A stretch of 64,000 bases of DNA from Candidatus Omnitrophota bacterium (GTDB lineage Bacteria; Omnitrophota; Gorgyraeia; Zapsychrales; Zapsychraceae), in NCBI GenBank assembly GCA_018062515.1, contig JAGOSC010000005.1:880-64879 (forward strand). The letters are read 5' to 3'. Positions 26,001 through 53,908 of the stretch are shown here, in pieces. Under the pieces are notes generated by a model. That model was not told the DNA's origin. It saw only the letters and a program-made list of their open reading frames with translations, and did no database searches. Position numbers and translations under genes: made by a program. Every line of letters starts with the position of its first letter. Within the stretch, counting starts at the first letter, position 1.

Positions 26001-29000
26001 TAGCTAACTTGAATCAAGTTGATGAAATTACTGAAGCCATGAGCCCGCAGCGAGCTGGAATTATGCCAGAATTTTCTACTCCAGAGGAACGTAAAGCTTG
26101 GTTAGCTACTGCCGAAGGAAAAATTTATGTAGCACGTTGGAAAAATTCATTAGAACGAGATTTGGAACTGATGGATCTGTATGCCGAAGCGGATCAAGAA
26201 CGGCAATTAGGTGCGGTAGGTTATAAGGATCCTTTAACCGGCGCTATTGAAATCGTCGACGCTGCTTCAGCTCGAATTCCATTCCGACAATTAGAAAAAG
26301 CTTTAAAGACAAATCAATTAACCGATACGGAAAAAGTTCGATATGCAAAATCACGAGAAAAATTACTTTTAGCCATGCGTCCAGGCGGACGAGAAGGCAG
26401 CGGTGAAAAAGTTTTTGCCGGGCAAAAAATTACAGCTCCGGCCATTGTGATGCGTCCTTGGATGGTTAATGCGTTTGCTAAAGATGGCGATCAAAACCGT
26501 TATCATTTAGATGAAGCTTATGCCAACGCCTCAAAATTTAAAGGATTAGTTGCTCATGGATTATTGACGGTAACTAAGGCTTTAAGTTCTTTAAAAGCTC
26601 AATTACCGGCTTATAAAATTGAAGAAGTCGACGACGCTAAATTCTTAGCTCCTGTACGCTTTAATGATACGATTACCCCGGTCATTGATGTTACGAGTGT
26701 CGACAATGAAAAAGCCAATGTAAAAATTAGTGTAATCAATCAAGACGGAAAAACAGTCAGTGAAATCAAAGTTTTATTAATAGAAAGCACTGATTCTCAA
26801 ATCATTCCAAAAATTAATAATGATTCTTTAAAATCAGCAGAAAAGGTGCCGGCTTCTATTCCGGCCGTCATTTACGATTTTACTGATCCACAAAGTCCTC
26901 GAGAACAAACGTTCAAGCAGGAAATCACATCCAGTTATTTAGAAAATGTTCAAGGATCTAATTTGATTACAAGCCGGGATTTATTAAGTCAATTAGCTGC
27001 CTTTAAAATGATGGCCGGTACTTCCGCCAATGCCGTCCCAGGCCACATATTATTGAATGCAACAAATGTAAAATTCGGAGCTGAAATTCATTTAGGTGAT
27101 GTATTGACCGCCAAAGCTACTGTTCCTGCAGCTGATCAAATTAAATTGACTAAAGACAATCTTCCTAAAGTTCCAGTCACGATTGAAATCACGAATCAAA
27201 ATGGAGAAATGGTTTTAAAAGGACAAGTATTAAAACTCATGGAACCGGGTAAAGATCGAGCGATGCTGGCCAAAAAACCATACCTTCTGCCAAGAGGAAA
27301 AATTGTTACATCGCCGGATGAACTTCCAACACATATGGAAGCATATGTAGTCCGACGCGGTGAGCATGGTGACCCAATTGATGCGTTTAAAAAATCCATT
27401 CAACCCGTTCCCGATGTGGGCGATTATGAAGTCCTTGTCCAAGTTATGGCTGGAGGATTAAATTTTAATGGAACATGGGCCCTTCAAGGTCTTCCCATTT
27501 CTCCATTTACTTATCCTTTGAATAAATTCCACGATGAACAACGCTTAGGTAGTGATGCTTCAGGCATTGTTGTGGCCGTTGGCAAACATGTCACACAATA
27601 TAAAATTGGTGATCAGGTTGTTATGGCTACCGGTGAAGATGACCGCGCTGAAAAAGATCCTGATCATGGCGATACCATGCAAAAACGAACGTTTGTTATC
27701 ACCGGGTATGAAACTCCGGATGGAACGTTCGGTCAATTTGTCGCTTTGGATGAACGTCAAGTACATCCGAAAGAGGCAAATATGACTTGGGAACAAGCCG
27801 CCAGTTATCATTTAGTCGCCGACACAGCTTGGCGAGATATGAAATACAAACTGGGTGTTAAAAAGGGAGATACTGTATTAATCTGGGGGGCATCAACAGG
27901 AGTAGGAGCTTTTAATGTCCAGATCGCTAAATATTTAGGAGCCAAGAATATTGTGGCGGTTGTTTCCAGTGCTTCAAGAGCGGAACAAGCCAGAAAATTC
28001 GGGGCCACTCAAGTGATTAATCGAACTGAACTTCCTAAAATTTTGGGATACAGTGATGCTGAAATTTGGGGTGAACTCTCTAACAATCCCCAAAAGCAGC
28101 AAAAACAAATTGAAATGTTAAATAAGTTCAGAGAATATTTTCTTTCTCTAACGGGTGGTGAATTAGCCGATGCCGTTGCGGAACAAATCGGCCAAACAAC
28201 TTATCCAATTAGTCAATATTTAGCTAAAGATTCCGGAAAAGTCACTCATTTTGCCGGAACATTTGGTTTCAAATTTACCTTTATGGGAAAAGATTTACCG
28301 TTGGATGAGAATACAAAAAAGCAAAAAACGCCACTTCAAATGTTAGAAGAAGCTGGTGTACGCGACGCTAAACGAGTGCTGATATATGGTGCTGATCAAC
28401 TTTCTAAAGAAATTTTTGAGGAAGTTAAAAAATACAGCACTAATATTGCTTTCATCGTTAAAAGCCAAGAAGAACAAAATACAGTCGAAAACTGGGATTT
28501 AGAAAAGACATATATCAAAGGTATTGTAGATTTAAATCCGATTTCTTTTCCTGAAGATATGCCTACACCTCCTCATCCAGACATCCCGGCAGATAAACAG
28601 GCAAAAAATCTTGAAGAATTTAATGAGTATCGTATCAAAGTACTGGATCCAATCCGAGGATCGGTTGTAAAAGCTTTAGGCGGTCAGCCCGACTTAATTG
28701 TTGAAAGAGCGGGGAACAAAAATACTTTGGATATCAGCGTATTTGTCGTGCGTCCTCATGGCGTCGTAACATATGTTGAATCAACAAAAGGAAAACGTTT
28801 AGTCTTTGATGCCCGATTTATTTGGATGTTCCAAAAGCAAATTTATCCTTGGGTTCTTGGGACTCATTATGCGAACCACACACAAACCAAGGAATTAAAT
28901 GATTTAGTTTTAAAAGGCATCATAAGCGTACCTGAACCCGAAGTATTTTCTTGGGATGAATTACCCTTAGCCCAGCAGAAAATGTATGAAAATAAATTAA

Positions 29001-29941
29001 TCGCAACCAAAGCGTCTGTTCTTATCGGAGCTGTTAAACCAGGACTGAAAGGTCTGCCCGAAGAAACTGCGGCAGAACTGCCCATAAAAAACGAAGAGGG
29101 ATTGCTTCCGGCTTTCATGATTACCTCAAAAATCATAGAACCCACCATTTCTGATAATCAAATCAATCTTTATAAGAATCCGGCCATTGATCTATCTGAG
29201 AAATTCGCAATATTAGCTGCTAAATCAAAATTTAAAGACCCAAATAGCGCCCTAGGAATGTATGCCTTGGAAACAAAGGCATTTATACCTGCCATTGTTG
29301 AAAAAGTTTTCGGGAACACGGCGGAATTAGGGGAATTTAAATTAAAGGGGTTTACATCATTTGCTCCTAGCGGATTAGATGCTAATGATCAAATTCGAAC
29401 GACATTGCAAGTAAGCCGCAATTTTAAGATCGACGGGGATGATGTATACCTTAATGCCCGTATATCTTTGGATAAATTTTTTGTCGATTCCGGAAAATGG
29501 AAAGAGTTGTTGGTCGGAAATCAAATACTAAAAATGCCAATTAACGACTTAAACTCTTTAGGTTTTTACTTACCGTCTGAAAAAATTGACTCCGCTTTGA
29601 TTGGAGAAAAAAACGATGTTAGCCTGAATAATAATATCGCTGAATCCAAAAAAGAATACGGCGGTATTGACTTTAATTCAAAATTTTTGAATCTTCAGAT
29701 CAAGCGTGATGGACGAGGAATTCCATTGCCGGTGAATCAGCAGCCATTGATGAACATTCACATCAATGGATTTTATCCGGTTCTCATTGAAACAATGCCG
29801 ATTAATTTACCATTGATTCTCGGTTTAGAGACGGAAGAAGAAGATTCGAATTCAAGAACTCAACAAAGTTCACTTGATCCTTTGCATAAACAAGAAGACA
29901 TACGTATCGAAGATTTAGAAACAGCCAGCATACTAAACTAA
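22019..29941 (+). CDS. Giant fusion protein A (2640 aa): leader + shared N module + 2x CitE/HpcH-like lyase + 2x MaoC hot-dog + crotonyl-CoA carboxylase/reductase-like MDR + shared C module
   Basis: Uninterrupted 7.9-kb ORF in AT-rich DNA. GAGGAA lies 8 nt upstream of the ATG. Domain motifs are listed in the sub-features. Confidence 0.9.
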   Translation: MMIFKRNKRNLTRKITSTFVLFSFIFSSILPPQVSAQSVFHLPIPGTLFNVTNTFNPFIIQGLTVDPQNPLHFSFIIDTGDTQTNDPDAFRLESTKLVKYFLASLTVPEDQMWVNLSPYEGNRIISDTFGQTEMGRDLLAQDYILKQMSASLTYSEEELGEKFWHRVHQRAKKEYGVKDIPLNTFNKVWIIPQKATVYEHDGSAYVVNSRLKVMMEEDYLALNKNIGEQAFGMNNVKQDEAESTSKVTSAIIKEIIIPELEKEVNEGSHFANLRQIYQSMILATWYKVNLKESLLGKVYIDQNKVQGIDLNDKNANQKIYEQYLAAFKKGVYNYIKEDYDSATHKSTPRQYFAGGFVPKTEDNATLAELITREKTTRLAATDQAALTPKGNQIRADFALLEDLTDEDAPKVQKPIEKIEDAQIAVDPNWVEDYLENLFPENSFPKPVKQEPVIISKERKELEDELIANRSQFSGSRINRNIKEKTGLDVPEDTVDYFVEHSGTLPGLNHRADRSQVIGQLIRNHRPYEISKLFALSESKNFERKYYPAWIQALSKIFTFLKDKNSTINTELTVQVNLDGILLIKDGSGEELKAFQKLDQLHTEKASVGALALQIVKLLTHDYDGLELTNTKELSDDLVSIFNIFGIKPTVINDAWMQTVLGYGDSSLNLQALKEGVEVTEADVDTYLFRLDTEKSLARQAGETVYLSTRSEAVAEMIKENKYDSALLASIDEKALTPEILTAFGGNVTAAQTVVAERLEAMRVADPNATVEQAVARLAWEYKPRDIQNVFPGDNWKFMFLAAKAGMKAPILLLDLEDAVATTRKEIARGVIVQLIRAFKGEGLTQDEFDFLQKNALQADDEKYPMTSFFTQSLVDGKTVYTLNPENQFHKDQMVLFRPNNLRTKWSAGDYSQVFRKVGHLVDGIYMPKVEGPEDIKIGASILRAIQKEQNWVVGRHKIFVLTELPGAVLTAENILKIAPEVEEVQLGVVDYTAATGGKNQVQIEQFPFMRYALLRLVEAANNIGKSAGLGITVQFTPEATAEDTVKAINIGLHRKWSVHPAHLKGMESFIGKFPKIVRKDIQYDELQGFDLVQLDQYASESRPILAPKVLTPKDVVLSRAVVTVSSGNIDGLKKALDSNADTIILDFGKKENLSEIKKILVQAKTTKSILVVDELDSLQSIKQIVTELNGYFQGFNLNNIQNASTVRDVDGLLSEAESDLGLNAGSLKIAVSFNDPQVVEEQSRYLGTDPAKALLYSSQRLSWAILNLPTMPTEDLDDPETRGYNYYHSLFIAMTAHAEVDSIDGYSADENLTEQVATSAIWGFQGKLANLNQVDEITEAMSPQRAGIMPEFSTPEERKAWLATAEGKIYVARWKNSLERDLELMDLYAEADQERQLGAVGYKDPLTGAIEIVDAASARIPFRQLEKALKTNQLTDTEKVRYAKSREKLLLAMRPGGREGSGEKVFAGQKITAPAIVMRPWMVNAFAKDGDQNRYHLDEAYANASKFKGLVAHGLLTVTKALSSLKAQLPAYKIEEVDDAKFLAPVRFNDTITPVIDVTSVDNEKANVKISVINQDGKTVSEIKVLLIESTDSQIIPKINNDSLKSAEKVPASIPAVIYDFTDPQSPREQTFKQEITSSYLENVQGSNLITSRDLLSQLAAFKMMAGTSANAVPGHILLNATNVKFGAEIHLGDVLTAKATVPAADQIKLTKDNLPKVPVTIEITNQNGEMVLKGQVLKLMEPGKDRAMLAKKPYLLPRGKIVTSPDELPTHMEAYVVRRGEHGDPIDAFKKSIQPVPDVGDYEVLVQVMAGGLNFNGTWALQGLPISPFTYPLNKFHDEQRLGSDASGIVVAVGKHVTQYKIGDQVVMATGEDDRAEKDPDHGDTMQKRTFVITGYETPDGTFGQFVALDERQVHPKEANMTWEQAASYHLVADTAWRDMKYKLGVKKGDTVLIWGASTGVGAFNVQIAKYLGAKNIVAVVSSASRAEQARKFGATQVINRTELPKILGYSDAEIWGELSNNPQKQQKQIEMLNKFREYFLSLTGGELADAVAEQIGQTTYPISQYLAKDSGKVTHFAGTFGFKFTFMGKDLPLDENTKKQKTPLQMLEEAGVRDAKRVLIYGADQLSKEIFEEVKKYSTNIAFIVKSQEEQNTVENWDLEKTYIKGIVDLNPISFPEDMPTPPHPDIPADKQAKNLEEFNEYRIKVLDPIRGSVVKALGGQPDLIVERAGNKNTLDISVFVVRPHGVVTYVESTKGKRLVFDARFIWMFQKQIYPWVLGTHYANHTQTKELNDLVLKGIISVPEPEVFSWDELPLAQQKMYENKLIATKASVLIGAVKPGLKGLPEETAAELPIKNEEGLLPAFMITSKIIEPTISDNQINLYKNPAIDLSEKFAILAAKSKFKDPNSALGMYALETKAFIPAIVEKVFGNTAELGEFKLKGFTSFAPSGLDANDQIRTTLQVSRNFKIDGDDVYLNARISLDKFFVDSGKWKELLVGNQILKMPINDLNSLGFYLPSEKIDSALIGEKNDVSLNNNIAESKKEYGGIDFNSKFLNLQIKRDGRGIPLPVNQQPLMNIHINGFYPVLIETMPINLPLILGLETEEEDSNSRTQQSSLDPLHKQEDIRIEDLETASILN
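24360..25230 (+). other. CitE/HpcH-family (malyl-CoA lyase / citrate lyase beta-like) domain 1
   Basis: APILLLDLEDAVA, LFRPNNL, IYMPKVEGPEDI, IFVLTELPGAV, LGVVDYTAATGG, WSVHPAHL. This is colinear with CitE-family motifs from memory. Boundaries are approximate. Confidence 0.6.
25350..26060 (+). other. Second, degenerate CitE-like domain
   Basis: SRAVVTVSSGNIDGLKKALDSNADTIILDFGKKEN, where the DLEDAV-type motif is replaced, and later IWGFQGKLANLNQVDEITEAMSP (compare GF.GK..IHP.QV). Boundaries are approximate. Confidence 0.45.
26400..27240 (+). other. Tandem MaoC-like hot-dog (enoyl-CoA hydratase/dehydratase) domains
   Basis: DGDQNRYHLDEAYANASKFKGLVAHGLLT is the MaoC signature D.NP.H.D...A....F...IAHG. 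A second hot-dog-like half follows (...GHILLNATNVKFGAEIHLGDVLTAKATV). Confidence 0.65.
27330..29040 (+). other. Crotonyl-CoA carboxylase/reductase-like medium-chain reductase domain with an internal insertion
   Basis: EVLVQVMAGGLNFNGTWAL, LGSDASGIVVAVGKHVTQYKIGDQVV, ETPDGTFGQFVALDERQVHPK, GDTVLIWGASTGVGAFNVQIAKYLGAKNIVAVVSSASRAEQARKFGA. All are colinear with Ccr-type sequences as I remember them. It is ~120 aa longer than stand-alone Ccr. Confidence 0.65.
29657..29835 (+). other. Shared C-terminal module, copy A
   Basis: YGGIDFNSKFLNLQIKRDGRGIPLPVNQQPLMNIHINGFYPVLIETMPINLPLILGLE, followed by a polar/acidic ~35-aa tail. Confidence 0.85.
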
Positions 29942-29957: not shown

Positions 29958-31000
29958 GTGATTAATCAATTTAAGAAGTTTCAGCCACGATTTGCTTATA
30001 AATTATTCTGTGCGGTCATCAATGTTGCGTTTATTTCAACTTCGGTTCTCCCACCGAGTTATGCTCAGGTTTTACCAACCGCATTTGCATTACCGCAACC
30101 CGGGGCAATGGTTAACCTAACGGAGAAGTTTATGCCGGTCATCGTGCGCGGCATAACCATTCATCCTGAAAATCCGCTTATGTTTGATTTTATGGTGGAT
30201 CAAGGCGACACAACTCTTGATGCGACCGCCCTCAAAAACGAATCGTTAAAACTAATTAAATACTTTCTCGCTTCCTTGACCATTCCAGAAAAGGAAATGT
30301 GGGTCAATCTTTCTCCGACGGAAAAAGATAGAATTATTCCTGATTCGTTTGGAGAAACCGAAATGGGACGGGATCTCTTAGCCCAAGATTATGTTCTCAA
30401 ACAGTTGACGGCCTCTTTGATGTATCCGGAAAAAGAATTAGGCCAAAAATTCTGGCAGCGCGTCCGTGAACGGGCGAAATCCGAATATGGTCTAACAGAT
30501 ATTCCGATGGATACATTTAATAAGGTATGGATTGTGCCTAAATCAGCGGTTGTTTTTGAAGGTAAAAATTCTGCCTTTGTCGTTGAGAGTGAGTTGGACG
30601 TCATGCTTGAAGAAGAGTATTCCCAGTTAGATGGTGTCATCCAGGCTCAAGGTTCCTCGTCGATAAAAAGTAGTTCAGCAAAAGAAATTATTAAAGAAGT
30701 CATTTTACCGGAAATCAAAAAAGAAGTTAACACGGGAGAGACTTTTGCGAATTTGCGTCAGATTTATAATTCCATGATCTTGGCTTCCTGGTATAAAGAT
30801 AATTTAAAAAAGAGTCTTTTAGGACAAGTATACGTCGATCAGAATAAAATACGCGGCATTGATGTTGAGGATAAAAATGTCAAACTAAAGATTTACGACC
30901 AATATATGAAGGCCTTTAAAAAAGGTGTTTACAACTATATAAGAGAAGATTATGACTCAGCATCTAAGAAAATGGTTCCGAGAAGATATTTTTCCGGTGG
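29958..31000 (+). other. Leader plus shared N-terminal module, copy B
   Basis: ..INVAFISTSVLPPSYA|QV, LPQPGAMVNL..GITIHPENPLMFDFMVDQGD..FLASLTIPEKEMWVNLSPTE..FGETEMGRDLLAQDYVLKQ..NLRQIYNSMILASWYK..AFKKGVYNYIREDYD..PRRYFSGG. Confidence 0.85.
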
Positions 31001-34000
31001 GGAAACATTTACAAATTTAAAAATCACTCGCCAGGATATAGATGATTCCGGGATGCTAAGCGCTTCACAAAAAGATGCAATGAATCCGGGTAATACCGAC
31101 GTCATTGTGACAGTAGCGTTAGCTGACTTTGGAAGCAATGTCGATACGACAACTTTAAAACAAGCCGCAAAAGAACTCAATGAAGATCAATCCATGGTTG
31201 GCGAAAATCCTGAGAATAAAAAGGGAATAACCGGAGGATTTTTAACGGACGGCAATTTGGTTGTATATGATAATCCTAAAATTGTCCTTTATCCGGAAAA
31301 TGTTAAAGATCATCCTGATGTCGACACAATGTATCAAATGTTTGAATCCATCTTGGGTCAAAATTCTGAAATTGTACAATCAGTGGGTGAAAGGATTGAC
31401 ACGAAAGAAATTCACGTCGAAGAACCATATGAAGTTACCGTTAACGGGAAAAATGAATCACGAGAAAGTTTAATTAAACAATTAGGCGGTTTAGGTCTTT
31501 TAGGCATGTCGGTACCGGCTGAATATCGAACCGTTGAACTCGGTGGTGATGGTAAAAAGGCCTTCCCTAAAATTGTTAAATCATTGGCGGATAAATGGGC
31601 ATGGTATGGGAACGCGTCTATTGGATCGCTGGTGCGTGTTCATGGCGGCGTGTCTACATTTCCAATTTTAATTTACGGAACGGAAGAACAAAAGAAAAAA
31701 TATTTGCCAAAATTAGCCTCGGGAGAAATGATCGGCGCTTATGCGTTGACGGAATCGAATCATGGGTCTGATACTCTTAATCAGGAAACTGTATTTGATA
31801 CCACCGGGGTTATCGTCGAGCAAGATGGCAAAAAGTATGTAAAAATAAATGGTTCAAAACAATATATTACCAATACACGTTTTGCGGATATTTTCACCGT
31901 GTTTGTGTCTGTCCAAAATCCTGAATGGAATAAGGATCAACCAGACGCAGCCCCACAATGGTTAAAAAGCGTTTTTGTCGTTGAGAAGAAAGATTCCACA
32001 CCGGATACTTTTTCATTTGGACCCGAAATGGAAAAAATTGGGCTTCCCGGATCTGCGACCCAAGAAATATTTTTTAATGATTTACTGATACCGATGGACA
32101 ACCTTTTAGGCAAATTAGGCCAAGGCGATAAAATCGGCATGAGTATTCTTAATTATGGACGATTAGCGATTGGCGCCGGATCTTTAGGCGGAAGCCAACG
32201 TATTCTCGATGAGAGTATACGCTGGATCCTTACTCGTCAGCAATTCGGACATCCCTTGGCCGACTTTAGCGCTGTTCAAACCAATATCGCCGAAATGGAA
32301 GCGAATATTTATGCGATGGAAGCCTTGGTTTATGCCGTCAGCGCGTTATTAGATAACAATGAAGCACCGGGGTTAGAAGCATCAATAGCCAAGGTCTGGG
32401 GGTCCAACACATTTCAGAAAATTGCCCAGATGGGTGTCAATCTGCGTGATGATGAAGGTTTTCTCAAATCAACGCATGTTAACCGCATACTCGGTGATTC
32501 CGTTGTCATGTCTATTTTTGAAGGGGCGAATGAAGTTCTTTCGTCACAGGTCATCGCCGCTTTATCCATGAAATACTTAGACAAAAAAGATAAATTATTA
32601 GGCAGCTGGACAATCCCTCAAGATAGCCCTGTTTACGACGAGAGTTTGCATATAAAACAGGCTGCCGAAACAATTATGCAAGCCAAGGATAAATTGATTA
32701 AAACCTACGGAACGACGTCGGTCTTGCGGGAGCGCGGGAAAGAACATCTTCAAGAATATTTTAATGCATTTGGATTAATGATCGCCGATCTGTACGTATT
32801 AGTGAATACGCTTAATCGAACACATCATTTGCTTTTGTCAAATCCTCAATCACAACATGAAAGGAATTTAGCTAAATTGGTTGTTGAAGAAGGTATTCGT
32901 CGAATCGAAAGCAATGCCGGGCTCATCTTGACTCAGGATGAAATTAAACTAGTTAATCTGGGTACCGAAAGCCCTGTGGAGCTCAAAATACAAGTAGCAA
33001 AACATATTTTAGAGAATAATAAATTTATGACGTGGACCCCTGCGACAGCCACCGACGAAGAAATAGTGAGTACGGAAGGCGCAAAACCGGTATCAACATT
33101 CCTCTTTAGTGGTCAAAAAGGTGAATACCCGGAATCAGCTTTACCATTTATGGAAGATAATGAGCAGTTTGCTGAAGGCCCGATGTACGAAGGTCTTAAA
33201 GAAATTTTCGCGGATATGGTCGTTTCTAAACAGATTAATAAAAATTTGGATGAAGGCCATTTAAAACTCACGCAGATTTGGGACGAACTGAAAGAATTAG
33301 GCCTTTTTGATCCGGAATACTCTACCATTGTAAAAAATTGGGTGAATCAATTTGCGGCATATGCCAGCCCGTCGCTAGGACTTACTTTAGCCGTTCATAA
33401 CGGCGTAGGTTCTATGCCCATTAAACTTTTTGGAAGTGATGCGCAGAAGGAAAAATATTTACCGCTATTTAACTCTGGTGAAAATATCGCGGCCATGGCC
33501 ATCACGGAAAAAGAGCATAACTCAGATATTTATTCTGACAATACGGTATTAGAAACGACCGCCACGCCCATCACCGACGAGAATGGAACGATTGTTTCTT
33601 ACCAAATCAAGGGTTCAAAAGATTATGTGATTAATGCGAGTGACAACAGCATATATATTATCTTAGCTTCGGTTTTGAATGAATCACAAGGAAAACAAAA
33701 ATCTTTATTTATCGTCGAGCATAACGATACTGGAAAAATTTCGGTCACAGAACAAAAAAATAAAATGGGTTTGAGATCAGCTATGACCGCGGTTGTTGAT
33801 TTTAATATCACCGTTCCGGCAGACCGCATGATCGGTGAGGCGGATCAAAGCGATATGATCAACCAAAACATTCAAGGTTATACGTGGACTGCTTTGGGTT
33901 CCATTTATTTAGGCGCCAGTGACATTGCGTTTAAAGAAACTTTAAAGTACGTAACTCAGCGCAAACAATTTTCCTACAAAAAAGATAATGTTTTAAAAAG

Positions 34001-35141
34001 AAAATTCATCGCGGATTTCGGTGCCGTACAAATATCCTTAGCCAACTCAGAAGCCATGTTATACGCCTTGGAATCGATGGTCTATGCTGTCAATGCAGAA
34101 TTTGATAGCGGCCGTAATCCCGTTTTTGAATCAGCTATTTTGAAAGTGATCGGGACAAACACATTCCAGGATATTGCCCGTCAAGGTGTGCAAAAACACG
34201 GCGGCATGGGTTTCGGGCGGGAAACGGAAGTCGCTAAATATTTCGAAGATTCCATCGCACTCGCGCAGATTGGCGGATCAAATAATGTCCTATTAGGTGT
34301 TGTTATCGGCCCCTTGGGATTAACGGCTTTAAAAGAAAATTCCGGCCTGAGCATTTTGGAAAACTGGAATATTCCGGAAGGCCCGTTGACGGATGATGTC
34401 CTTAGAATAAAAGTAGCCGCTAAAACTATTTTGAATATGGTGAGTGAATTTGAAAAACGCGGCATTACGAAAAATAACCCTTCCGCCAGTATATATTTTC
34501 ACCTGCTTGGAGAAATGTTTGTCCAACTCTATGTGATGACCACGACGGTGAACCGCACTCAACATCGTTTAGATAAGGGCATGGATTCTGCGCATGAAAT
34601 TGGTTTAACAAAAACCATTGTCATTGACGGGATACAAAAAATACAAAAATTAGCGCAAGAATTACGTATTTCTGCGCCATCCACGCCATCCCTAAACAGT
34701 GATCAATTGGTGGCCTTGAAAACAGAAATCGCGGAATCAACATTAGAACGCACGACCGATTGGGAAAAACCACAAACAGAAAAAGATATAGCCATGGTGG
34801 CAGAAACCGAAGATCCATACTTGATGAATAAAGCAGATCTCAATACACCGTCGACAAAAGATAAGGTAGGGGGTATTAATTTAGACCGTTCCTTACTGAA
34901 TATGCAAATCCTCCGGGATGAGGGCGGTGTTCCTCTTCCGCTCGACGATCAACCGCTTTTGGAAATGAATATCGAAGGGTTTATTCCGGTGATCATTCAA
35001 ATTACACCGGCTCTAAATGTGCCTTTATTGTTGGGGTTAGCCGGTGAAAAGAAAGATTCAAATTCAAACAGCCAACGCGGTTCGCTAGACCCTTTGCAAA
35101 AAAAAGAGCATATGCTTGTAGAATATGAGGAACGCAGCTAA
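29958..35141 (+). CDS. Giant fusion protein B (1727 aa): leader + shared N module + two acyl-CoA dehydrogenase units + shared C module
   Basis: GTG start 16 nt after the ORF A stop, preceded by AGGGA. 5.2-kb open frame. Motifs are in the sub-features. Confidence 0.88.
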   Translation: MINQFKKFQPRFAYKLFCAVINVAFISTSVLPPSYAQVLPTAFALPQPGAMVNLTEKFMPVIVRGITIHPENPLMFDFMVDQGDTTLDATALKNESLKLIKYFLASLTIPEKEMWVNLSPTEKDRIIPDSFGETEMGRDLLAQDYVLKQLTASLMYPEKELGQKFWQRVRERAKSEYGLTDIPMDTFNKVWIVPKSAVVFEGKNSAFVVESELDVMLEEEYSQLDGVIQAQGSSSIKSSSAKEIIKEVILPEIKKEVNTGETFANLRQIYNSMILASWYKDNLKKSLLGQVYVDQNKIRGIDVEDKNVKLKIYDQYMKAFKKGVYNYIREDYDSASKKMVPRRYFSGGETFTNLKITRQDIDDSGMLSASQKDAMNPGNTDVIVTVALADFGSNVDTTTLKQAAKELNEDQSMVGENPENKKGITGGFLTDGNLVVYDNPKIVLYPENVKDHPDVDTMYQMFESILGQNSEIVQSVGERIDTKEIHVEEPYEVTVNGKNESRESLIKQLGGLGLLGMSVPAEYRTVELGGDGKKAFPKIVKSLADKWAWYGNASIGSLVRVHGGVSTFPILIYGTEEQKKKYLPKLASGEMIGAYALTESNHGSDTLNQETVFDTTGVIVEQDGKKYVKINGSKQYITNTRFADIFTVFVSVQNPEWNKDQPDAAPQWLKSVFVVEKKDSTPDTFSFGPEMEKIGLPGSATQEIFFNDLLIPMDNLLGKLGQGDKIGMSILNYGRLAIGAGSLGGSQRILDESIRWILTRQQFGHPLADFSAVQTNIAEMEANIYAMEALVYAVSALLDNNEAPGLEASIAKVWGSNTFQKIAQMGVNLRDDEGFLKSTHVNRILGDSVVMSIFEGANEVLSSQVIAALSMKYLDKKDKLLGSWTIPQDSPVYDESLHIKQAAETIMQAKDKLIKTYGTTSVLRERGKEHLQEYFNAFGLMIADLYVLVNTLNRTHHLLLSNPQSQHERNLAKLVVEEGIRRIESNAGLILTQDEIKLVNLGTESPVELKIQVAKHILENNKFMTWTPATATDEEIVSTEGAKPVSTFLFSGQKGEYPESALPFMEDNEQFAEGPMYEGLKEIFADMVVSKQINKNLDEGHLKLTQIWDELKELGLFDPEYSTIVKNWVNQFAAYASPSLGLTLAVHNGVGSMPIKLFGSDAQKEKYLPLFNSGENIAAMAITEKEHNSDIYSDNTVLETTATPITDENGTIVSYQIKGSKDYVINASDNSIYIILASVLNESQGKQKSLFIVEHNDTGKISVTEQKNKMGLRSAMTAVVDFNITVPADRMIGEADQSDMINQNIQGYTWTALGSIYLGASDIAFKETLKYVTQRKQFSYKKDNVLKRKFIADFGAVQISLANSEAMLYALESMVYAVNAEFDSGRNPVFESAILKVIGTNTFQDIARQGVQKHGGMGFGRETEVAKYFEDSIALAQIGGSNNVLLGVVIGPLGLTALKENSGLSILENWNIPEGPLTDDVLRIKVAAKTILNMVSEFEKRGITKNNPSASIYFHLLGEMFVQLYVMTTTVNRTQHRLDKGMDSAHEIGLTKTIVIDGIQKIQKLAQELRISAPSTPSLNSDQLVALKTEIAESTLERTTDWEKPQTEKDIAMVAETEDPYLMNKADLNTPSTKDKVGGINLDRSLLNMQILRDEGGVPLPLDDQPLLEMNIEGFIPVIIQITPALNVPLLLGLAGEKKDSNSNSQRGSLDPLQKKEHMLVEYEERS
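31330..32580 (+). other. Acyl-CoA dehydrogenase domain 1
   Basis: LGLLGMSVPAEY, GAYALTESNHGSD, INGSKQYITN, RQQFGHPLADF, IFEGANEV (the Y-E-G-T-type position keeps the Glu). Boundaries are approximate. Confidence 0.7.
33200..34330 (+). other. Acyl-CoA dehydrogenase domain 2 (divergent)
   Basis: ELGLFDPEYS, AAMAITEKEHNSD, IKGSKDYVINA, RKQFSY. The C-terminal motif reads AQIGGSNNV, where ACADs of the MCAD type have Y-E-G-T. Confidence 0.6.
34866..35045 (+). other. Shared C-terminal module, copy B
   Basis: VGGINLDRSLLNMQILRDEGGVPLPLDDQPLLEMNIEGFIPVIIQITPALNVPLLLGLAGE, followed by a polar tail. Confidence 0.85.
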
Positions 35142-36200
35142 GTGATTATTCAGTTTAAAAAATTCCAGTTAAAATTTACCTATAAATTTCTTTGTACGGT
35201 TATCAATATTGCGTTTATCTCGACTTGTGTTCTACCGCCGAGCTATGCTCAGGTTTTATCTTTACCCCAACCTGGAACCATGCTGAATGTAAGCCCGGTT
35301 TATACTCCGCCCATGATCAAAGGACTGACCATTGATCAAGAAAACCCGCTGCATTTTCAATTTATTATTGATACTGGAAATGAACAATATAAAGATAATG
35401 ATCAGCTTCGAGAAGAATCAACACGCTTAATTAAATATTTCCTTGCTTCGTTAACAGTTCCTGAAAATGAAATGTGGGTGAACCTTTCACCCCATGAAAA
35501 AGACCGCATTATTCCCGACGGGTTCGGCCAAACCGAAATGGGCCGTGACCTTTTAGCCCAGGATTATATTTTAAAACAACTCACCGCGTCATTGATTTAT
35601 CCTGAAAAAGAATTAGGGGCTGAGTTTTGGAAAAAAGTGCATGACCGCGCTTGGAAAGAATTTAAAACAAAAGAAATTCCATTGGATACATTTAATAAGG
35701 TTTGGATTGTTCCGGAAAAAGCAGTGATTTATGAACATGAAAGAAGCGCTTATGTTCTGGAAAGTCATTTAAAGGTCATGTTGGAAGAAGATTATCAAGC
35801 ACTTATATCCAATACTTCGTCGACATCCGCGGACAATCAAAAATTAAAAGATGATAATCGGCAACTGACAGCGTCGATCATGAAAGAAATTATTATTCCG
35901 GAAATCGAACGGGAAGTTAATGAAGGTAAAAATTTCACAAATCTACGCCAAATTTACCAGTCGATGATTTTAGCGACGTGGTACAAGATGAACTTAAAAG
36001 AGTCATTACTTGGACAAATTTACGTCGATCAGAATAAACTCATAGGGATTGATCTCGACGATAAGAATGTTAAAGACAAAATTTACGCGCAGTATATAGA
36101 AGCCTTTAAAAAAGGTGTTTATAACTATATCAAAGAAGATTATGATCCTGACCAGCAAAAGACCGTTCCTCGTCAATACATTTCGGGCGGTTTCTCGACG
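35142..36200 (+). other. Leader plus shared N-terminal module, copy C
   Basis: ..INIAFISTCVLPPSYA|QV, LPQPGTMLNV..GLTIDQENPLHFQFIIDTGN..FLASLTVPENEMWVNLSPHE..FGQTEMGRDLLAQDYILKQ..NLRQIYQSMILATWYK..AFKKGVYNYIKEDYD..PRQYISGGF. Confidence 0.85.
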
Positions 36201-39200
36201 GTAGGAAAAGATAACGCAACGCTCGTTGATCTCGTTGGCCGAGAAATCATTAAGTCCAGCGCCGGCTATGTGAGCGCGGATCAATATAAACGTATTTCCA
36301 AAGGACTTAAACCCAGCGGTGATCAATTCAGAACAGATGTTCAATTATTAGAAAACGGAAATAATGGAATTATTAACGCCGATCAATCCATGCTGGTTAA
36401 GATCGACGATGCTTTACAAAAAAATCCTTCTCAAAAAGTTCATACGGTTAAAGGATACACACCGGCTGGAAATCCAATTGAAGATGTTCTTACATATCAG
36501 GATATCAGCGACCAATCCAATCAATTTGCCCATGTATTAAAAAATGCGGGGATTGAAAAAGGCGACCGTGTGGCTGTTATGTCGCCGGTCTCAGGTTTGG
36601 AAATGATCGCGTCTTTGGGAATTTGGAAAGCCGGGGCAGTACGTGTACCGTTTAAAACCCAATGGACGTCGAATGAAATTAAAAAATATTTGACCCAAAC
36701 CACGCCTGAAGCGATGGTTATTCTAAATGTGTATTACGATCAACATTTATTGTCAATTTTAAATGAATTTAAAGATTTAAAAGTTTATATCATTTCTTCC
36801 GGCGAAACTATTTCTTCAACACCTCACGTCATGACTTTTCAAAATAGTTTAATCAATCAAACAACGGATTTCTTAAATATTTCTTCCGATCCGAGGGATT
36901 TAGTCCAATTGGCTATTTCCACCGGAACAACCGGTGAATCAAAAATTGTAAAGCAAACACAAGAAAACTTTTATTTCAGTACGCAAGAGTATAGTGAGTG
37001 GCTTGATGATGCTCCTCAAGGCCCTGTCGTCAGCACTTTACCGCCGGGAACGTACGGAAGCCATAGTATTTTAGGAACTGTTCTGCGAGGACGTCCGTTA
37101 TATATCGTTCCCCGTTTACCCAAAAATCAAACGACCGATGAATATACCCAGACATTATCGGAAACATTGAAGAGAACAAACGCGAAAATTTTATTCGGCG
37201 TTCCAACGCAATTTCAGGCTTTAGCCATGACGGGAGAAAAATTCCCCGGCCTTATTGGTTTAAGCCGAGGAGCCGCGTTAAGAGATGTAAAACAATTATT
37301 TGAGTCGGTGACCGGAGGACGGGTTATCGAAGGTTATGGATTGACAGAAGGAACCAGTTCAGTCACCAATCCGATTAATAGAGATAAGCCGGGTACCGTC
37401 GGAATTCCGTCAAAAGATACGACATTTAAAGTCATTAATCCATCCACGCAAAAAGAACTTCCCATTGGTGAAGAAGGTGAATTAGTGTTAAAAGGCCCGC
37501 AGGTTATGGCCGGATATTGGGAAGATCCTGTGGGCACTAAAGCCGCTTTTACAGAAGATGGATTTTTAAGGACCGGCGATTTGGGCTCCATCGACAAAGA
37601 TGGTTATATAAAAATCACCGGCCGCTTAAAAGACATTATTATTTCCGGCGGTGATAATGTCATTCCGTCGGAGGTAGAAAAAATTATTAAAACCAACGCC
37701 GCTATCGAAGAAGTTACCGTCGTCGGTATAAGTGATCCTGGCCGTTTTCCTGATGATCCGGCATTTGCTGAGCTCGTTGAACATTGGGGGGAAGTTGTTG
37801 TCGCGTTTGTCGTCCCGAAAAAGGGCATGAATACTTTAAATTTAGAGCCATCCATACGAGAATTTGCCAAAAAGAATTTGGCTGCTTATAAAGTCCCCAA
37901 AAAAGTTGTTGTCCTCAATAAACTGCCTCTGCTAGGAGACCTTTTTAAAATTGACCGTCAACAACTCATCCGAGGCGACAATGACAATGCTGTTTTAGTT
38001 ATTCCTTCAGCCATCAAGAATATAGAAAATATAAAAGCCAAATTAGTGTTAAATTTTATGATAAATGAGACTTTAAGAAATGGTTTAATTTCCCAAATTG
38101 ATGGCGAAAAACTTATTCCTTCTGTGGCCATTGATGATGAACAAATAACAGTTGCAAAAAAAGTCAGCGATGAAGAATATGAACTATCCGGAACGAAGGC
38201 GGCTGTTGTCAATGGAGGCCGGGCTTCTTTTTATATTGTATTTGCGCAGCTCAACGGAAAATCAAAAGCGTTCTTAGTCGACAATCCAAAAGGGATAACC
38301 AAAAAATCTGTTCCCACCATGGGCTTGGCTGAAAATAATATTGCTCAAGTTCAGTTTAACCGTGTTAGAGCCAAACTCATCACTGATAATTTAGACGATT
38401 CCGAAATACTTAAAGCTGTACAAAATAAAGAAAATAAAATCATTCGAGCCCTGGCTATTTCCGAAGCCCAAAGGATATATAAAATGGGCGAGAAATATGC
38501 CGCCGAAAGACGCGCCTTTGGACAATCCATCAATAAATTCCCATCTTTAAAACGATTAATGGATGGTATTCAAACGGATGTAGAAAACATCAATGCATCC
38601 CCGAATCCAACCGCCATGCTGGTTGATATAGCCAACCGTGTCCTTCAAATTTTTGCGGCGCGCGGATTTGAAAATAATACGCCGGCTGTAAAAATCTGGC
38701 GTGAGGCACAGGCCCTACATGCCATTGTCACTTATCGGCAATCTTTAACAAAAACAACTCCGGAAAACATATCTCTTGACCCTGAAGAGGTATTTAAAAA
38801 AGGTTCATGGGAAGATTTTGGATTAACACCGGATCAGATTTCTCTAAAATCGAAAATTCGCAATTTTGCGGAAAATATCGTCGCGCCAATGTATGAAGAG
38901 CTTGATCGTGATGGACAGTATCCGCTTTCTATATTGAAGAAAATGGGGGATGCCGGCATTACAAAACCCGGTTATCCAAAAGAAGTTGGCGGTGAAGAAG
39001 CTGACACATTAAGCTGGGCCATCGTCGTCGAGGAACTGGTTAAAGCGGCTCCGGCCTTCGGTATATTTTCCGGTGTTCCGCACACGGCTTCCGTTCCAAT
39101 TCTCAAATCCGGCACTCCCGAACAGAAAGAAATTGTCGCGCAAGTTGTCCGCGGAGAAATTCCTCTATCTTACGGACAGAGCGAACCTCACAGCGGATCG

Positions 39201-42200
39201 GACGTTGGCGGAATTAAGACAACGGCTCATTTAACAAAACGTGATGGTGTTGAAGGTTATGTTATTAACGGTGAAAAAATTTGGATTGGAAGCGCGACCG
39301 TAGCTCCGTGGTTGGTATTATTGGCAAAAACAGGCGAGGCTACTGATCGAGATTTAAATAAATTTGCATTTTTCCTAGTCCCGTTTCGGGATCAAGATGG
39401 TAAATTCCAAAAAGGAATTGAAGTTCATGAAATGGATTTATTGGGAATGCGGGGAATTGGCAACAGCCATATCATTATGAAAGATGTATTTATTCCCAAA
39501 GAAAATATATTAGGTGAAGTTGGTAAAGGATTTAAAACCGCTATGCACGCCATGGATAGCGGGCGTATTTTTGTTTCCTCTCGAGGATTGGGCGTGATAA
39601 GCCACGCGGTGGAGAATGCCAAAGAAGCTTTAAAAGAAGCATTGCGAGAAAATCCGAACTTGCCCCACGCTCAAAATTATATTTCTCAGATTGACTTAAT
39701 GGAAGCCGAACGGCTAAGCGTGCGGGCTATGCTGCAAAAAACATCTGACATGAATGACCGAGGCAAACGCATGACTTATGAAACGGCGATCATGAAATGG
39801 ATTGCCGGAGAAGTTGCTGCCGACATTGCTCAGCGTTCCTACGATCTAATTCACACCATCTCATATAATCCATCACGATGGGCGCATTCCGAACGGGTTT
39901 TGCGGGATTCGCGGCAAATTCGTATCGGCGAAGGGACGCCGCAAATTATGCAACGTATCGCTGGTCTTAAAATCCGACGTCAAATGAAAAAAAAGTTAAC
40001 ACATTTATCAAGTGACATTATTTTACAGGATGCCCTAAAACAAATTCTCGACGAAAAAGAAAATGATTCTGTGCCTACCCGTCTGAATATTCTGTTTAAT
40101 ATAGCTCTGGCCGCATACCTCAAAGCGATTAAAGATGGACAATTTGATATTACGCCCGTCGAGCCATATGGCATTGAATTGGATTTGGCTAATTTAGAAG
40201 CCTTGCGTATGCGTGTGAATGATTTTCAAAAAATGCTCACACAAATGGCGCAATCTGGACAACCTTTTCCTTATGGAAATGCTGTTCAGATATTTATGAA
40301 TCAGAAGTATGTCGAAGCTGAGACGATAGTTCATAATATTTTTACACAATTAAGTTTTAAGACCGAATTGGAAGAAATAAAAGACTATGCTATGATCGCT
40401 TCACTGCAAGTCGAAGAGCTTCGCAAACGTTTTAAAGAAACCGGCGGAGCGATCACACGGGAAGAAGCGCAACAAATAGTAAAAGGTGCAAAGCCAGAAG
40501 AGGTTGCAGTTGTCCTTGAGCAAATAGCATATCAGTCAAGCCTTTATGGGCCTGTCAACGATCCTGCCATTAACAGAGTTGATCCAAAAATTTATGAATC
40601 TTTAATTGGAATTCCTGGTCAAGCGCCGTTTGTCCGCGGATTGTTTCCTTCAGTTACGCAGCGCGCTGCTGGCCGATGGCCGACGGTACGACGTTATGGT
40701 TCGTATGGAACTGCGGAAGAATCAAACGCCAATCTTAAAAAACAATTAGAAGCGGGTGTTACTGGATTTAGTATTGCTTTTGATTTACCGACTCAAAATG
40801 GTTATGACACAGGTCATCCTTTAGCTGTTGGAGAAGCTGGCCGCGTCGGTATCGCCATTAACACATTGCAAGATATGGAAGATCTTTTTGATGGACTGCC
40901 TTTAGAGAAAATTAGTACATCAATGACCATTAATCCAACCGCGCCAATTCTTTTTGCCATGTATGTGGCTGCAGCGCGTAAGAAAGGCGTGCCAGACAAA
41001 TTAATTGCCGGAAGCGTTCAAAATGATAGCTTGAAAGAATACACGGCGCGTAATACGTATGTTCTACCTTATAAAGGTATGATGCGCATGACCACAGATG
41101 TATTTCGTTGGACGAAAGACAATTTGCCGCGATTTAATACGATTACGATTTCTGGTTATCATATCCGTGAATCCAACGTCGATGCGGTTAAAGAAATTGC
41201 TTTTACGATAACGAACGCGCTTCAATATGTCGCCGAATTAAAACGCAAAGGTCTAAGCCGTGATGAAATCGCCGGATCATTGGCCACGATGGCTTGGTTT
41301 ATCAATTTGAAAATGAATACGTTTGAAGAAGTCGGAAAACTTCGCGCACTCCGACGGGTATGGTCGAAAATTGTCCGTGATGGATTAGGCATTAAACCTG
41401 AAAATGTGACTGATCCTAAGCTCAAAGATGTGTATCAAAAAGCAACGAACGCCCGGGTTGCAACCTGGTCGGGTGGAAGCGAAGTCCGGTTACCGTACGC
41501 AACGACACTGAATTTTGCCCGTAACGCTATCCGTGCTTTTAACGCACCGTTAAGCGGCGTTCAAAGTTGGGACGGAGCAGCCTTTGATGAATCCATCGGA
41601 ATACCGACGGATTTTGCTCAAGAAGAAGCTATGCTTCGGCTTTTCGCGGCACAGTCGGAAACAGGCCTTATGGAATTAGATGATCCATTCGGCGGATCAT
41701 ATTTCTTGGAAGCTGAGACAAATCGAATTGAGCAAGGAATTTGGAATGAATTATCTGAATTATCACAAAAAGATTCATTCTTGGATGTTCTCCAATTTAT
41801 GGTCGATGAACGAACGCGCTTAACTGATCAGGACCGAATAGATTTAGAAGGGGGACAACGAAAAATCGTCGGGTACAACATTTCCACCGACGGGGCAGAT
41901 GCTTATCCTCAACCCAAAGCTCGGCCGATGAACACCGAAAATTTCGATGTAAAACAGGGCAAAAGATTAAAGAAAGTTTTGGAAACTCGCGATAATGACG
42001 CTGTACAATCCGCCTTGGATGAACTTGAAAAAGCATTAAAAAATGAAACTGAAAATGTCCTGCCATATATTTTTAAAGCCGTCGAAGTTTACGCTACGGT
42101 TGGAGAGATTAGTGACCGCATGCGACGCATATATGGCGCCTCCGACGGAAAGACTCCATGGAATGCGCAACCTGTTTGGAAAGATTTGAAAGACAAAGAA

Positions 42201-53840: not shown

Positions 53841-53869
53841 TTGACGATGTGTACAATATCAATTATATT
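53841..53869 (+). promoter_or_regulatory. Candidate sigma70 promoter for the serpin gene
   Basis: TTGACG (53841-53846), 17-nt spacer, TATATT (53864-53869). This argues against the GTG 53849 start given in the ORF track. Confidence 0.4.
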
Positions 53870-53908
53870 ATTTACACATATCCACGGTCTAAACGCTTAA
53901 AAAAATTC

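Follow-up and report, generated by a model that had tools for sequence, protein, structure and literature searches.

The window, i.e., the whole 64,000-nucleotide stretch of DNA that was analyzed, comes from an uncultivated Omnitrophota bacterium and carries four giant open reading frames. One of them, ORF B, encodes an N-terminal module, an acyl-CoA dehydrogenase (ACAD) unit with its extension, a linker, a second ACAD unit with its extension, and a C-terminal module, in this order:

29958-35141, plus strand: ORF B, GTG start, 1727 aa
29958-31247, plus strand: N-terminal module (aa 1 to ∼430), made up of a hydrophobic signal/anchor helix and, after it, a conserved domain
31440-32561, plus strand: ACAD unit 1 core (aa ∼495 to 868), Pfam N/M/C domains, putative catalytic, alpha-like half
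32433-32462, plus strand: unit 1 partner-side motif GVNLRDDEGF, degenerate (Q to N828, GG to D831-D832)
32514-32537, plus strand: unit 1 catalytic loop IFEGANEV (aa 853 to 860), with E855 as the base and also E859
32562-33047, plus strand: unit 1 VLCAD-type helical extension (aa ∼869 to 1030)
33048-33269, plus strand: interunit linker and the start of unit 2 (aa ∼1031 to 1104), of low confidence by AF2 pLDDT
33270-34322, plus strand: ACAD unit 2 core (aa ∼1105 to 1455), Pfam domains, putative noncatalytic, beta-like half
34185-34214, plus strand: unit 2 partner-side motif GVQKHGGMGF, intact
34269-34289, plus strand: unit 2 catalytic loop IGGSNNV (aa 1438 to 1444), degenerate (base to G1439, second Glu to N1443)
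34323-34757, plus strand: unit 2 VLCAD-type helical extension (aa ∼1456 to 1600), with Pfam PF21343 at aa 1517 to 1572
34869-35093, plus strand: C-terminal module, 'GGINLD...PVIIQITP..NVPLLLGL' (aa ∼1638 to 1712, ∼80 aa)

The Pfam domains Acyl-CoA_dh_N, _M, and _1 are each found twice, with PF02771/PF02770/PF00441 above the cutoff in both units, placing both in the ACAD superfamily. The two units, extensions included, are 33% identical across 502 aa (E=1e-81); the tandem ACAD proposed in an earlier note on this DNA stands. Its range, 31330 to 34330, takes in unit 1, the unit 1 extension, and the unit 2 core, but the unit 2 extension runs to ∼34757 and the ORF is far larger. The motifs IFEGANEV and IGGSNNV are each present once in ORF B. 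ORF B shows 100% identity to P0001, which bears the name 'acyl-CoA dehydrogenase family protein [Candidatus Omnitrophica bacterium]'. A Logan contig assembled separately from run SRR11088468, possibly from shared reads, encodes the identical 1727 aa as well.

Both units have a VLCAD-type fold. Their best PDB sequence matches are 2z1q, 3owa, human VLCAD, and ACAD9; the unit 1 alignment with 2z1q reaches into the extension, the C-terminal extensions of the two units align to each other, and the PF21343 match is to ACAD9/ACADV_C. In a FAD-free AF2 model of aa 470 to 1600, each unit resembles dimeric VLCAD-type structures, with a Foldseek TM score of ∼0.8 (target normalized) over ∼580 columns against 3owa and 2z1q. 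These matches agree with the VLCAD/ACAD9-type helical extensions described earlier. The pTM of 0.83 for this 1,131-residue, two-unit chain implies that the units would form a compact, confidently placed pair. The pLDDT falls below 50 at model residues 553 to 636 and 646 to 666, and the low-confidence linker region between the units covers ∼85 to 110 residues.

In human SCAD, FAD is contacted by L154, S155, T187, G160, S161, and E396 of its own subunit, in which E392 is the base, and by R297, Q365, and G369 of the neighboring subunit (PMC13027082); our contact mapping rests on this one paper and the human SCAD sequence. A preprint on ACAD9 describes the same division, in which one monomer binds the flavin ring and the other binds ADP. 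FAD-contact columns were obtained by placing the SCAD residues on a 110-sequence alignment. The human SCAD sequence used in this step matches the published numbering at 11 of 12 positions.

The FAD-binding residues, which the earlier note had flagged for inspection, reveal opposite losses in the two units. Unit 1 has a whole ring side and base (L597, T598, G603, S604, T638, E855, and E859) and also keeps R735 and R760; its partner side is altered, with Q replaced by N828 and GG by D831-D832, in columns that are Q, G, and G at 97 to 99% among relatives. Conversely, all six ADP-clamp residues on the partner side of unit 2 are kept (R1335, F1338, Q1412, G1415, G1416, and G1418), and its ring side is altered (G to N1188, T to I1225, and E to N1443). 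Of 107 relatives, 104 have Glu in the catalytic-loop column; as the motifs had indicated, unit 1 keeps this Glu of the Y/F-E-G-T loop (E855), as does the full ACAD unit of ORF C (E1597), and unit 2 has G1439 instead. Because the losses in units 1 and 2 fall on opposite sides, only one complete FAD site, combining the pocket of unit 1 with the clamp of unit 2, could be assembled in ORF B, and because N828, D831, and D832 lie on the partner-facing side of unit 1, the units would be mutually dependent.

The absence of the Glu from unit 2 had earlier been explained in two ways, as an alternative-base enzyme or as a pseudo-enzyme partner. In the first case, unit 2 would be an active ACAD with a differently placed base, as in IVD or LCAD, and ORF B would have two dehydrogenase activities. 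IGGSNNV is superficially like the I-G-A-G-T-S-E loop of the IVD type, and genuine tandem ACADs with IVD-type units are known (P0165, P0243, and, in its N-terminal unit, P0122). However, the IVD/LCAD base column of unit 2 is T1309, and W1310 takes the place of the adjacent Arg, which every one of the 107 relatives has; IVD-type control units in the same alignment have Glu in this helix G column, reading E-R where unit 2 reads T1309-W1310. The flavin-ring contacts are also gone from unit 2 (N1188, I1225, and N1443), and the ADP clamp for a unit 2 FAD would have to be N828 and D831-D832 of unit 1. For comparison, SCAD is severely impaired by G160S, in the column of N1188, and its substrate affinity is reduced by R272C, in the column of W1310 (PMC13027082). 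An alternative-base enzyme is thus very improbable; the residues kept for the FAD of a partner and lost for its own FAD argue that unit 2 is a pseudo-enzyme partner.

We scored substitutions (ring, partner) as changes in 7 columns on the ring side and 6 on the partner side. Among 111 relatives, 93 score (0,0), versus (0,3) for unit 1 and (5,0) for unit 2, and two or more changes in at least one column set are seen in a single relative, likely a fragment. The weight of the case lies in this near-invariance of the contact columns, not in per-unit Fisher tests, which on such small contact sets give p=0.07 for each unit. Across unit 2, where the alignment is shallow, the interface helices of the C-domain retain 13 of 16 conserved columns, whereas the ring/beta/helix-G region retains 16 of 38 (Fisher p=0.015), a pattern that points to selective rather than uniform decay. 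Single-unit ACADs of the same clade, carried by other giant proteins (P0002, P0121, P0125, and P0126), have virtually no losses on either side (one partner-side change each in P0125 and P0126, plus one ring-side change in P0126), so the split is peculiar to the ORF B tandem.

On the phylogenetic tree, unit 2 lies within the six-member clade of unit 1, on a longer branch, which would fit duplication inside this lineage followed by divergence. The clade is made up of ACADs from giant proteins, and all identified ones are from Omnitrophota. We found no orthologue with the ORF B tandem among 5.8 billion clustered proteins or 1.84 billion representatives, so selection keeping the degenerate states cannot be demonstrated. 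This singleton status, with purifying selection on unit 2 not demonstrable, and the longer branch are what would be seen if unit 2 were a decaying, functionless duplicate and unit 1 an ordinary homodimer across two ORF B chains. Such a homodimer, however, would offer N828 and D831-D832 to both FADs, in columns that are nearly always Q, G, and G, and unit 2 has an unbroken 560-aa reading frame and a confident AF2 fold, with the partner side (6/6) and interface helices (13/16) kept and the ring side lost. We regard simple decay as distinctly unlikely.

Rather, ORF B is probably a whole VLCAD-type ACAD dimer within a single polypeptide, with one of the two active sites functional. Unit 1 would be the catalytic half, providing the flavin-ring pocket, the substrate-side Arg, and Glu855; unit 2 would be the pseudo-enzyme half that packs on unit 1, with R1335, Q1412, and G1415-G1416 holding the ADP end of the unit 1 FAD. 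The mirror-image site would be broken from both sides, by the ring pocket of unit 2 (N1188, I1225, G1439, N1443, and W1310) and by the clamp of unit 1 (N828 and D831-D832), so one FAD and one active site are expected per chain. We infer this stoichiometry from the residue pattern, which exactly fits a single FAD shared by the two partners, the catalytic one binding its ring and the noncatalytic one its ADP. The same α/β logic could also work in trans, with unit 1 of one chain joined to unit 2 of another in head-to-tail dimers or polymers: sequence complementarity alone does not separate cis from trans pairing, and the terminal modules common to all four giant proteins might arrange higher-order assemblies. 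The single-chain pTM and a linker region long enough for intramolecular pairing speak against this arrangement, and neither is decisive; we consider trans pairing unlikely and infer that units 1 and 2 pair within one chain.

Two more ACADs are found in ORF C:

38139-38741, plus strand: truncated ACAD (aa ∼1000 to 1200), beta and C-terminal domains, without the base
38814-39971, plus strand: full ACAD (aa 1225 to 1610), SCAD/Bcd-like, base E1597 kept

With these, the operon holds 3.5 ACAD units, as counted earlier. The truncated unit keeps R1123, F1126, Q1169, and G1175, with GG changed to AA, and all six partner-side residues of the full unit are replaced (A1500, E1503, D1568, H1571, T1572, and S1574). 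This complementarity would be similar to that in ORF B but weaker, and the half-unit pattern alone is not significant (p=0.19). The truncated and full ACADs would follow the same pairing logic, and the 3.5 units of the operon would probably amount to about two active sites; if so, the claim that they exceed the need of any pathway fails. The earlier note had named a normal base in unit 2, together with all units being recent duplicates of one ACAD, as evidence against its view; unit 2 has no such base, and the full ORF C unit belongs to a SCAD/Bcd-like lineage. Neither the degeneracy of unit 1 (N828, D831, and D832) nor the split in ORF C figured in that note.

The operon also encodes a Ccr-like reductase/carboxylase, a CitE/malyl-CoA-lyase-like domain, a MaoC hydratase, an acyl-CoA ligase, a B12 mutase, and an AccA/AccD carboxyltransferase, a domain set suggestive of ethylmalonyl-CoA-type metabolism of short-chain or dicarboxylic CoA esters. 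We considered (2S)-methylsuccinyl-CoA dehydrogenase (Mcd; PDB 6es9 and 8ciw), to be recognized by closest similarity to Mcd and an Mcd-type N-terminal extension, as an identity for two of the ACADs and rejected it for both, since 6es9 comes far down the list of matches: unit 1 matches 6es9 with E=6e-31 versus 5e-62 for 2z1q, and the full ORF C unit matches 6es9 with E=1e-30 versus 7e-50 for Bcd. These ACADs may still act on methylsuccinyl-CoA.

All four giant ORFs have the N-terminal and C-terminal modules in common. The N-terminal module is shared with thousands of Omnitrophota proteins; it matched no Pfam or NCBIfam family, and no recognizable fold was found for it. These proteins may represent a previously undescribed 'cassette' that consists of a signal/anchor helix, a conserved N-module (∼400 aa), a variable cargo of enzymes, a C-module of ∼80 aa, and a tail of ∼50 aa. 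A more speculative and rather doubtful idea is that the dead-partner ACAD is one case of a design rule in this Omnitrophota cassette; the four-gene operon would then build a tethered CoA-ester pathway of ethylmalonyl-CoA type in an unusual cellular location. If chains are exported or tethered singly, obligately oligomeric enzymes would have to carry their partner in cis; possible cases are the α/β ACAD pair of ORF B, the truncated and full ACADs and the two mutase barrels of ORF C, and AccA with AccD in ORF D. Omnitrophota multienzyme proteins that join cofactor-dependent enzymes of a cytoplasmic type to a signal peptide are poorly understood, and in-cis partner domains, if general, would bear on how these giant chains are deployed. 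For annotation, ACAD domain counts would overstate catalytic capacity, since 3.5 units probably mean two active sites here.

Among known enzymes, VLCAD, ACAD9, and the bacterial VLCAD-type ACADs (PDB 3b96, 8phe, 2z1q, and 3owa; Bacillus-type FadE) share with the ORF B units a core followed by a helical C-terminal extension of ∼150 to 180 aa; the NCBIfam FadE model gives 282 and 168 bits for the two units (cutoff, 600). Unlike these homodimers, in which both FAD sites are equivalent, ORF B has units with opposite substitution sets at the FAD-contact columns and would be two diverged, fused copies with one site kept. Uncharacterized metagenome tandem ACADs of ∼770 aa (such as P0131 and P0137) likewise have one unit without the base and another with a partly degenerate partner-side motif, but their units are short, their order is β-α, their degeneration is much milder, and the ring side is whole in both.

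The design of a catalytic and a dead partner in one chain is itself already known from steroid-degrading bacteria. CasC, a fused steroid/bile-acid ACAD of Rhodococcus jostii RHA1, has two ACAD domains in one polypeptide; the Glu is in just one of them, and FAD binding depends on the other (PMC8399759; PMC11333196). In the α2β2 ChsE enzymes, α holds the isoalloxazine and the Glu and β holds ADP-ribose (PMC11153573; PMC8399759). In ChsE1-ChsE2, ChsE4-ChsE5, and IpdE1-IpdE2, each αβ pair has a single FAD and a single active site, as proposed for ORF B, but these enzymes are encoded by separate genes, form tetramers, and act on steroids. ORF B has the base in just one of two paired ACAD folds (E855 versus G1439), as these enzymes do. 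Membership of ORF B in the steroid ACAD families was rejected: the NCBIfam IpdE2 model gives its units 35 and 19 bits, far below the cutoff of 450, and both fall in the VLCAD-type giant-protein clade. This placement makes the split look independent of that in CasC. CasC has its catalytic domain at the C terminus and ORF B at the N terminus; ORF B has two ∼560-aa VLCAD-type units, whereas CasC-like proteins, judged from the ∼770-aa tandem ACADs, would have short ones (∼380 aa) that lack the VLCAD extension; and, unlike CasC, it is set between Omnitrophota terminal modules. ORF B would thus be a single-chain α/β pseudo-dimer that works like CasC and ChsE and is of independent origin. If so, a catalytic subunit with an FAD-holding pseudo-subunit, a solution so far known from steroid-degrading Actinobacteria and Proteobacteria, would have arisen another time, on a long VLCAD-type scaffold and with an unusually clean reciprocal loss of three changes versus five.

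ORF B is the second of four giant ORFs that form one operon, all in the same direction and nearly gapless, with housekeeping genes of the ordinary kind on both flanks:

22019-29941, ORF A, 2640 aa: crotonyl-CoA carboxylase/reductase-like region, CitE/malyl-CoA-lyase-like domain, MaoC hydratase
29958-35141, ORF B, 1727 aa: tandem acyl-CoA dehydrogenase (ACAD)
35142-45560, ORF C, 3472 aa: acyl-CoA ligase, methylmalonyl-CoA-mutase-type barrel and B12 domain, besides ACADs
45567-52088, ORF D, 2173 aa: AccA and AccD carboxyltransferase halves, cNMP-binding domain

ORF B is 100% identical to an NCBI-named protein of Candidatus Omnitrophica bacterium, and a Logan contig of run SRR11088468, assembled separately but possibly built from the same reads, encodes the identical 1727-aa protein. 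Pfam finds the three ACAD domains twice in ORF B, with a match to the ACAD9/ACADV C-terminal domain after the second set. Units 1 and 2 share 33% identity over 502 residues (E=1e-81); this alignment runs through both helical extensions, so the duplicated item is a whole long-type ACAD gene. Among solved structures, both units come nearest to the long, dimeric type of ACAD (2z1q, 3owa, human VLCAD, and ACAD9), and the top NCBI model for both is the Bacillus-type FadE, yet under its cut-off. IFEGANEV (aa 853-860, unit 1) and IGGSNNV (aa 1438-1444, unit 2) occur once each, and both align with the catalytic loop of VLCAD and other solved ACADs. Pfam, motif positions, and alignments thus confirm the earlier note's account of the two loops, and of an extra 1.5 ACAD units in ORF C.

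The earlier note had offered two readings of the unusual loop in unit 2: an enzyme with an alternative base, or a pseudo-enzyme partner. Units 1 and 2 and the ORF C unit were aligned with 107 relatives drawn from 1.84 billion representative proteins, which were searched exhaustively. The usual base column holds Glu in 104 of the 107 relatives and G1439 in unit 2. An alternative base would be expected at the IVD/LCAD position, one residue ahead of an Arg that is invariant in 107/107, where unit 2 has T1309 and W1310; in the same alignment, ~770-aa tandem ACADs with an IVD-type loop, which serve as a positive control, show Glu in this helix-G column. Given T1309 and W1310, set against Glu in the IVD-type controls, we reject the alternative-base reading; the base is absent from both known positions in unit 2.

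The pseudo-enzyme partner reading gains from the pattern of FAD contacts. In ACAD dimers, two subunits build each FAD site. Columns were numbered through a human SCAD sequence that matches the numbering of PMC13027082 at 11/12 residues. In the cryo-EM structure of human SCAD, whose catalytic base is E392, a subunit contacts its own FAD through L154, S155, and T187 at the ring and through G160, S161, and E396 at the ribityl-pyrophosphate, and the adjacent subunit of the dimer contributes R297, Q365, and G369 (PMC13027082). An ACAD9 preprint describes the same split in VLCAD-type enzymes: one monomer holds the ring, and the other holds the ADP. The own-subunit (ring-side) and adjacent-subunit (partner-side) columns are occupied reciprocally in ORF B.

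FAD-contact residues of the two ORF B units
Unit 1, ring side: L597, T598, G603, S604, T638, E855, E859, R735; all intact
Unit 1, partner side: R760 kept; Q replaced by N828; GG replaced by D831-D832
Unit 2, ring side, lost: G to N1188, T to I1225, E to G1439, E to N1443, R to W1310
Unit 2, partner side: R1335, F1338, Q1412, G1415, G1416, G1418; all intact

The columns examined are 93-100% conserved across the family, and SCAD mutations at matching sites are harmful: G160S severely impairs activity, Q365H blocks assembly, and R272C reduces affinity for substrate (PMC13027082). When substitutions were counted over seven ring-side and six partner-side columns, in that order, 93 of 111 relatives scored (0,0), and a single relative, likely a fragment, had two or more changes in one of the sets; unit 1 scored (0,3) and unit 2 (5,0). 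Of the conserved columns, unit 2 keeps 13/16 within the interface helices of the C-terminal domain vs 16/38 within the ring/beta/helix-G region (p=0.015). Both sides are essentially intact in the single-unit ACADs of the same clade from other giant proteins (P0002, P0121, P0125, and P0126); P0125 and P0126 have one partner-side change each, and P0126 additionally has one ring-side change. Covariation of the inter-subunit salt bridge (equivalents of VLCAD D391/R416/R419) was uninformative, these residues being variably lost in the clade's single-unit relatives too.

This residue pattern sharpens the partner reading: ORF B is probably a reciprocal, single-site α/β pseudo-dimer. The pocket of unit 1 and the clamp of unit 2 would make the sole complete FAD site, and the mirror site, made of the unit 2 pocket and the unit 1 clamp, would be damaged from both sides. 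Unit 1 would have no normal homodimer site, because Asn and Asp-Asp would face the partner's ADP, and unit 2, judged by its residues, could not perform catalysis; the units would therefore be mutually dependent. We predict a single FAD and a single active site for each ORF B chain. Modelled with AF2, aa 470-1600 (a 1131-residue chain; mean pLDDT 78.5, pTM 0.83) form two bodies joined through a low-confidence linker region of ~85-110 residues; each body resembles 3owa and 2z1q, both of them VLCAD-type structures (TM ~0.8). For two bodies of ~500 residues, a pTM of 0.83 implies that their mutual arrangement is confidently predicted, and from the model we infer that units 1 and 2 pair within one chain.

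On a distance tree, unit 1 and unit 2 (the latter on a longer branch) form a six-member clade together with ACADs from four further giant proteins, of which those identified are from Omnitrophota. The closest relatives of unit 2 are P0121 (37%), unit 1 (34%), and P0002 (34%); nothing outside the clade exceeds about 30%. These relationships fit a duplication inside this lineage followed by subfunctionalisation. No tandem orthologue was found with whole ORF B or unit 2 as the query, nor in the 1.84 billion representatives. On this tree, the ORF C unit sits in a separate SCAD/Bcd-like lineage; thus, the earlier note's counter-scenario, a normally placed base in unit 2 and all units recent duplicates of one ACAD, does not hold.

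In ORF C, a truncated ACAD consisting of just the beta and C-terminal domains (aa ~1000-1200) is followed immediately by a full one of the SCAD/Bcd-like type (aa 1225-1610). The latter retains its base, E1597, along with most residues of the ring side, and its partner-side residues are replaced at 6/6 positions (A1500, E1503, D1568, H1571, T1572, and S1574), giving a score of (2,6) and a regional bias opposite to that of unit 2 (26/38 vs 4/16, p=0.006). The truncated unit has neither base nor ring-side motif, keeps R1123, F1126, Q1169, and G1175, and has GG softened to AA. These features are suggestive of a second in-cis α/β pair, and they go no further than that because the enrichment test on the half-unit alone was not significant (p=0.19) and a search for an orthologue of the half-plus-full region found none. 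The count of 3.5 ACAD units in the operon stands; if the ORF C pair holds, they amount to two active sites, and the excess that had seemed apparent is gone.

A second mutase-like segment of ORF C (42440-43010, aa ~2434-2623) lies between the main mutase barrel and the B12-binding domain. It is strongly diverged (26% identity, E=5e-9, in a comparison with 41150-41760, aa ~2003-2207) and could be an inactive partner in cis, like MutA, which would parallel the ACAD pairs. A methylmalonyl-CoA epimerase-like domain in the last ~250 aa of the ORF C cargo was rejected, as phmmer against the PDB returned nothing at E≤1. The operon's domain vocabulary is that of CoA-ester metabolism of the ethylmalonyl-CoA type; the crotonyl-CoA carboxylase/reductase-like region of ORF A reaches 342 bits with TIGR01751, slightly below the cut-off. 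Mcd orthology of the ORF B or ORF C ACADs is unsupported, with the Mcd structures 6es9 and 8ciw ranking low. ORF D joins its AccA-like and AccD-like halves to the cyclic-nucleotide-binding domain (aa 1837-1917) in one chain; neither a biotin carboxylase nor a BCCP domain turned up anywhere in the operon. Shortly downstream of the operon is a full-length serpin gene (53849-55177; Pfam Serpin, 425 bits). Near the start of the window, where GC is lowest (0.33 in 1-2000), a phage-type integrase gene (930-2012) adjoins a tRNA-Pro(GGG) gene (2013-2086); 930-2086 resembles the boundary of an integrated element that lies at the end of the contig.

All four giant ORFs are bracketed by shared modules:

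22019-23300, 29958-31247, 35142-36430, 45567-46800: N-modules of ORFs A to D
29650-29900, 34869-35093, 45300-45520, 51800-52040: C-modules of ORFs A to D (approximate)

The N-module (~400-430 aa) opens with a hydrophobic, signal-like helix and continues as a highly conserved domain; the C-module (~80 aa), "GGI(D/N)L...PVI..I.P..NLP.LLG", lies about 50 aa before the end. Among the best 120 N-module matches, 118 have the motif, 116 have a hydrophobic N terminus, and 109 contain the C-module exactly once, with its end about 50 aa short of the C terminus. Thousands of Omnitrophota proteins carry the N-module, with glycolytic, glycogen, nucleotide-sugar, and signalling enzymes as cargo. Neither module matched Pfam or NCBIfam, and a fold search with an N-module model gave no match. 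The accessible portions of two preprints report giant proteins of Omnitrophota that combine several enzymes and bear signal peptides or TM helices, and make no mention of this bracket. The first ~35 codons of ORFs A-D (29958-30060 in ORF B) encode basic residues, a hydrophobic core, and then "PPSYAQ", and these N termini look like Sec signal peptides. They stand alongside enzymes that require FAD, B12, ATP, NADPH, and CoA, a topology puzzle that West-Roberts et al. likewise raise for glycolytic domains of giant proteins.

The proposed mechanism of ORF B has clear precedents in two groups of ACADs. In the α2β2 ACADs that act in cholesterol catabolism, the Glu and isoalloxazine binding reside in α and ADP-ribose binding in β (PMC11153573). 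[quoted passage not shown] Metagenomes also hold uncharacterised ~770-aa tandem ACADs (P0122, P0123, P0131, P0137, P0165, and P0243), composed of two standard units, two IVD-type units, or one of each; P0131 and P0137 are CasC-like, with an N-terminal unit without a base and a C-terminal unit with a base and a partly degenerate partner-side motif.

ORF B resembles CasC and the α2β2 ACADs in working principle, but it does not belong to their families. With the IpdE2 model, whose cut-off is 450 bits, units 1 and 2 score 35 and 19 bits, and on the tree both units fall in the VLCAD-type clade of giant-protein ACADs. Unlike these enzymes, ORF B uses the long VLCAD-type unit, places the catalytic half first, and has degenerated more deeply.
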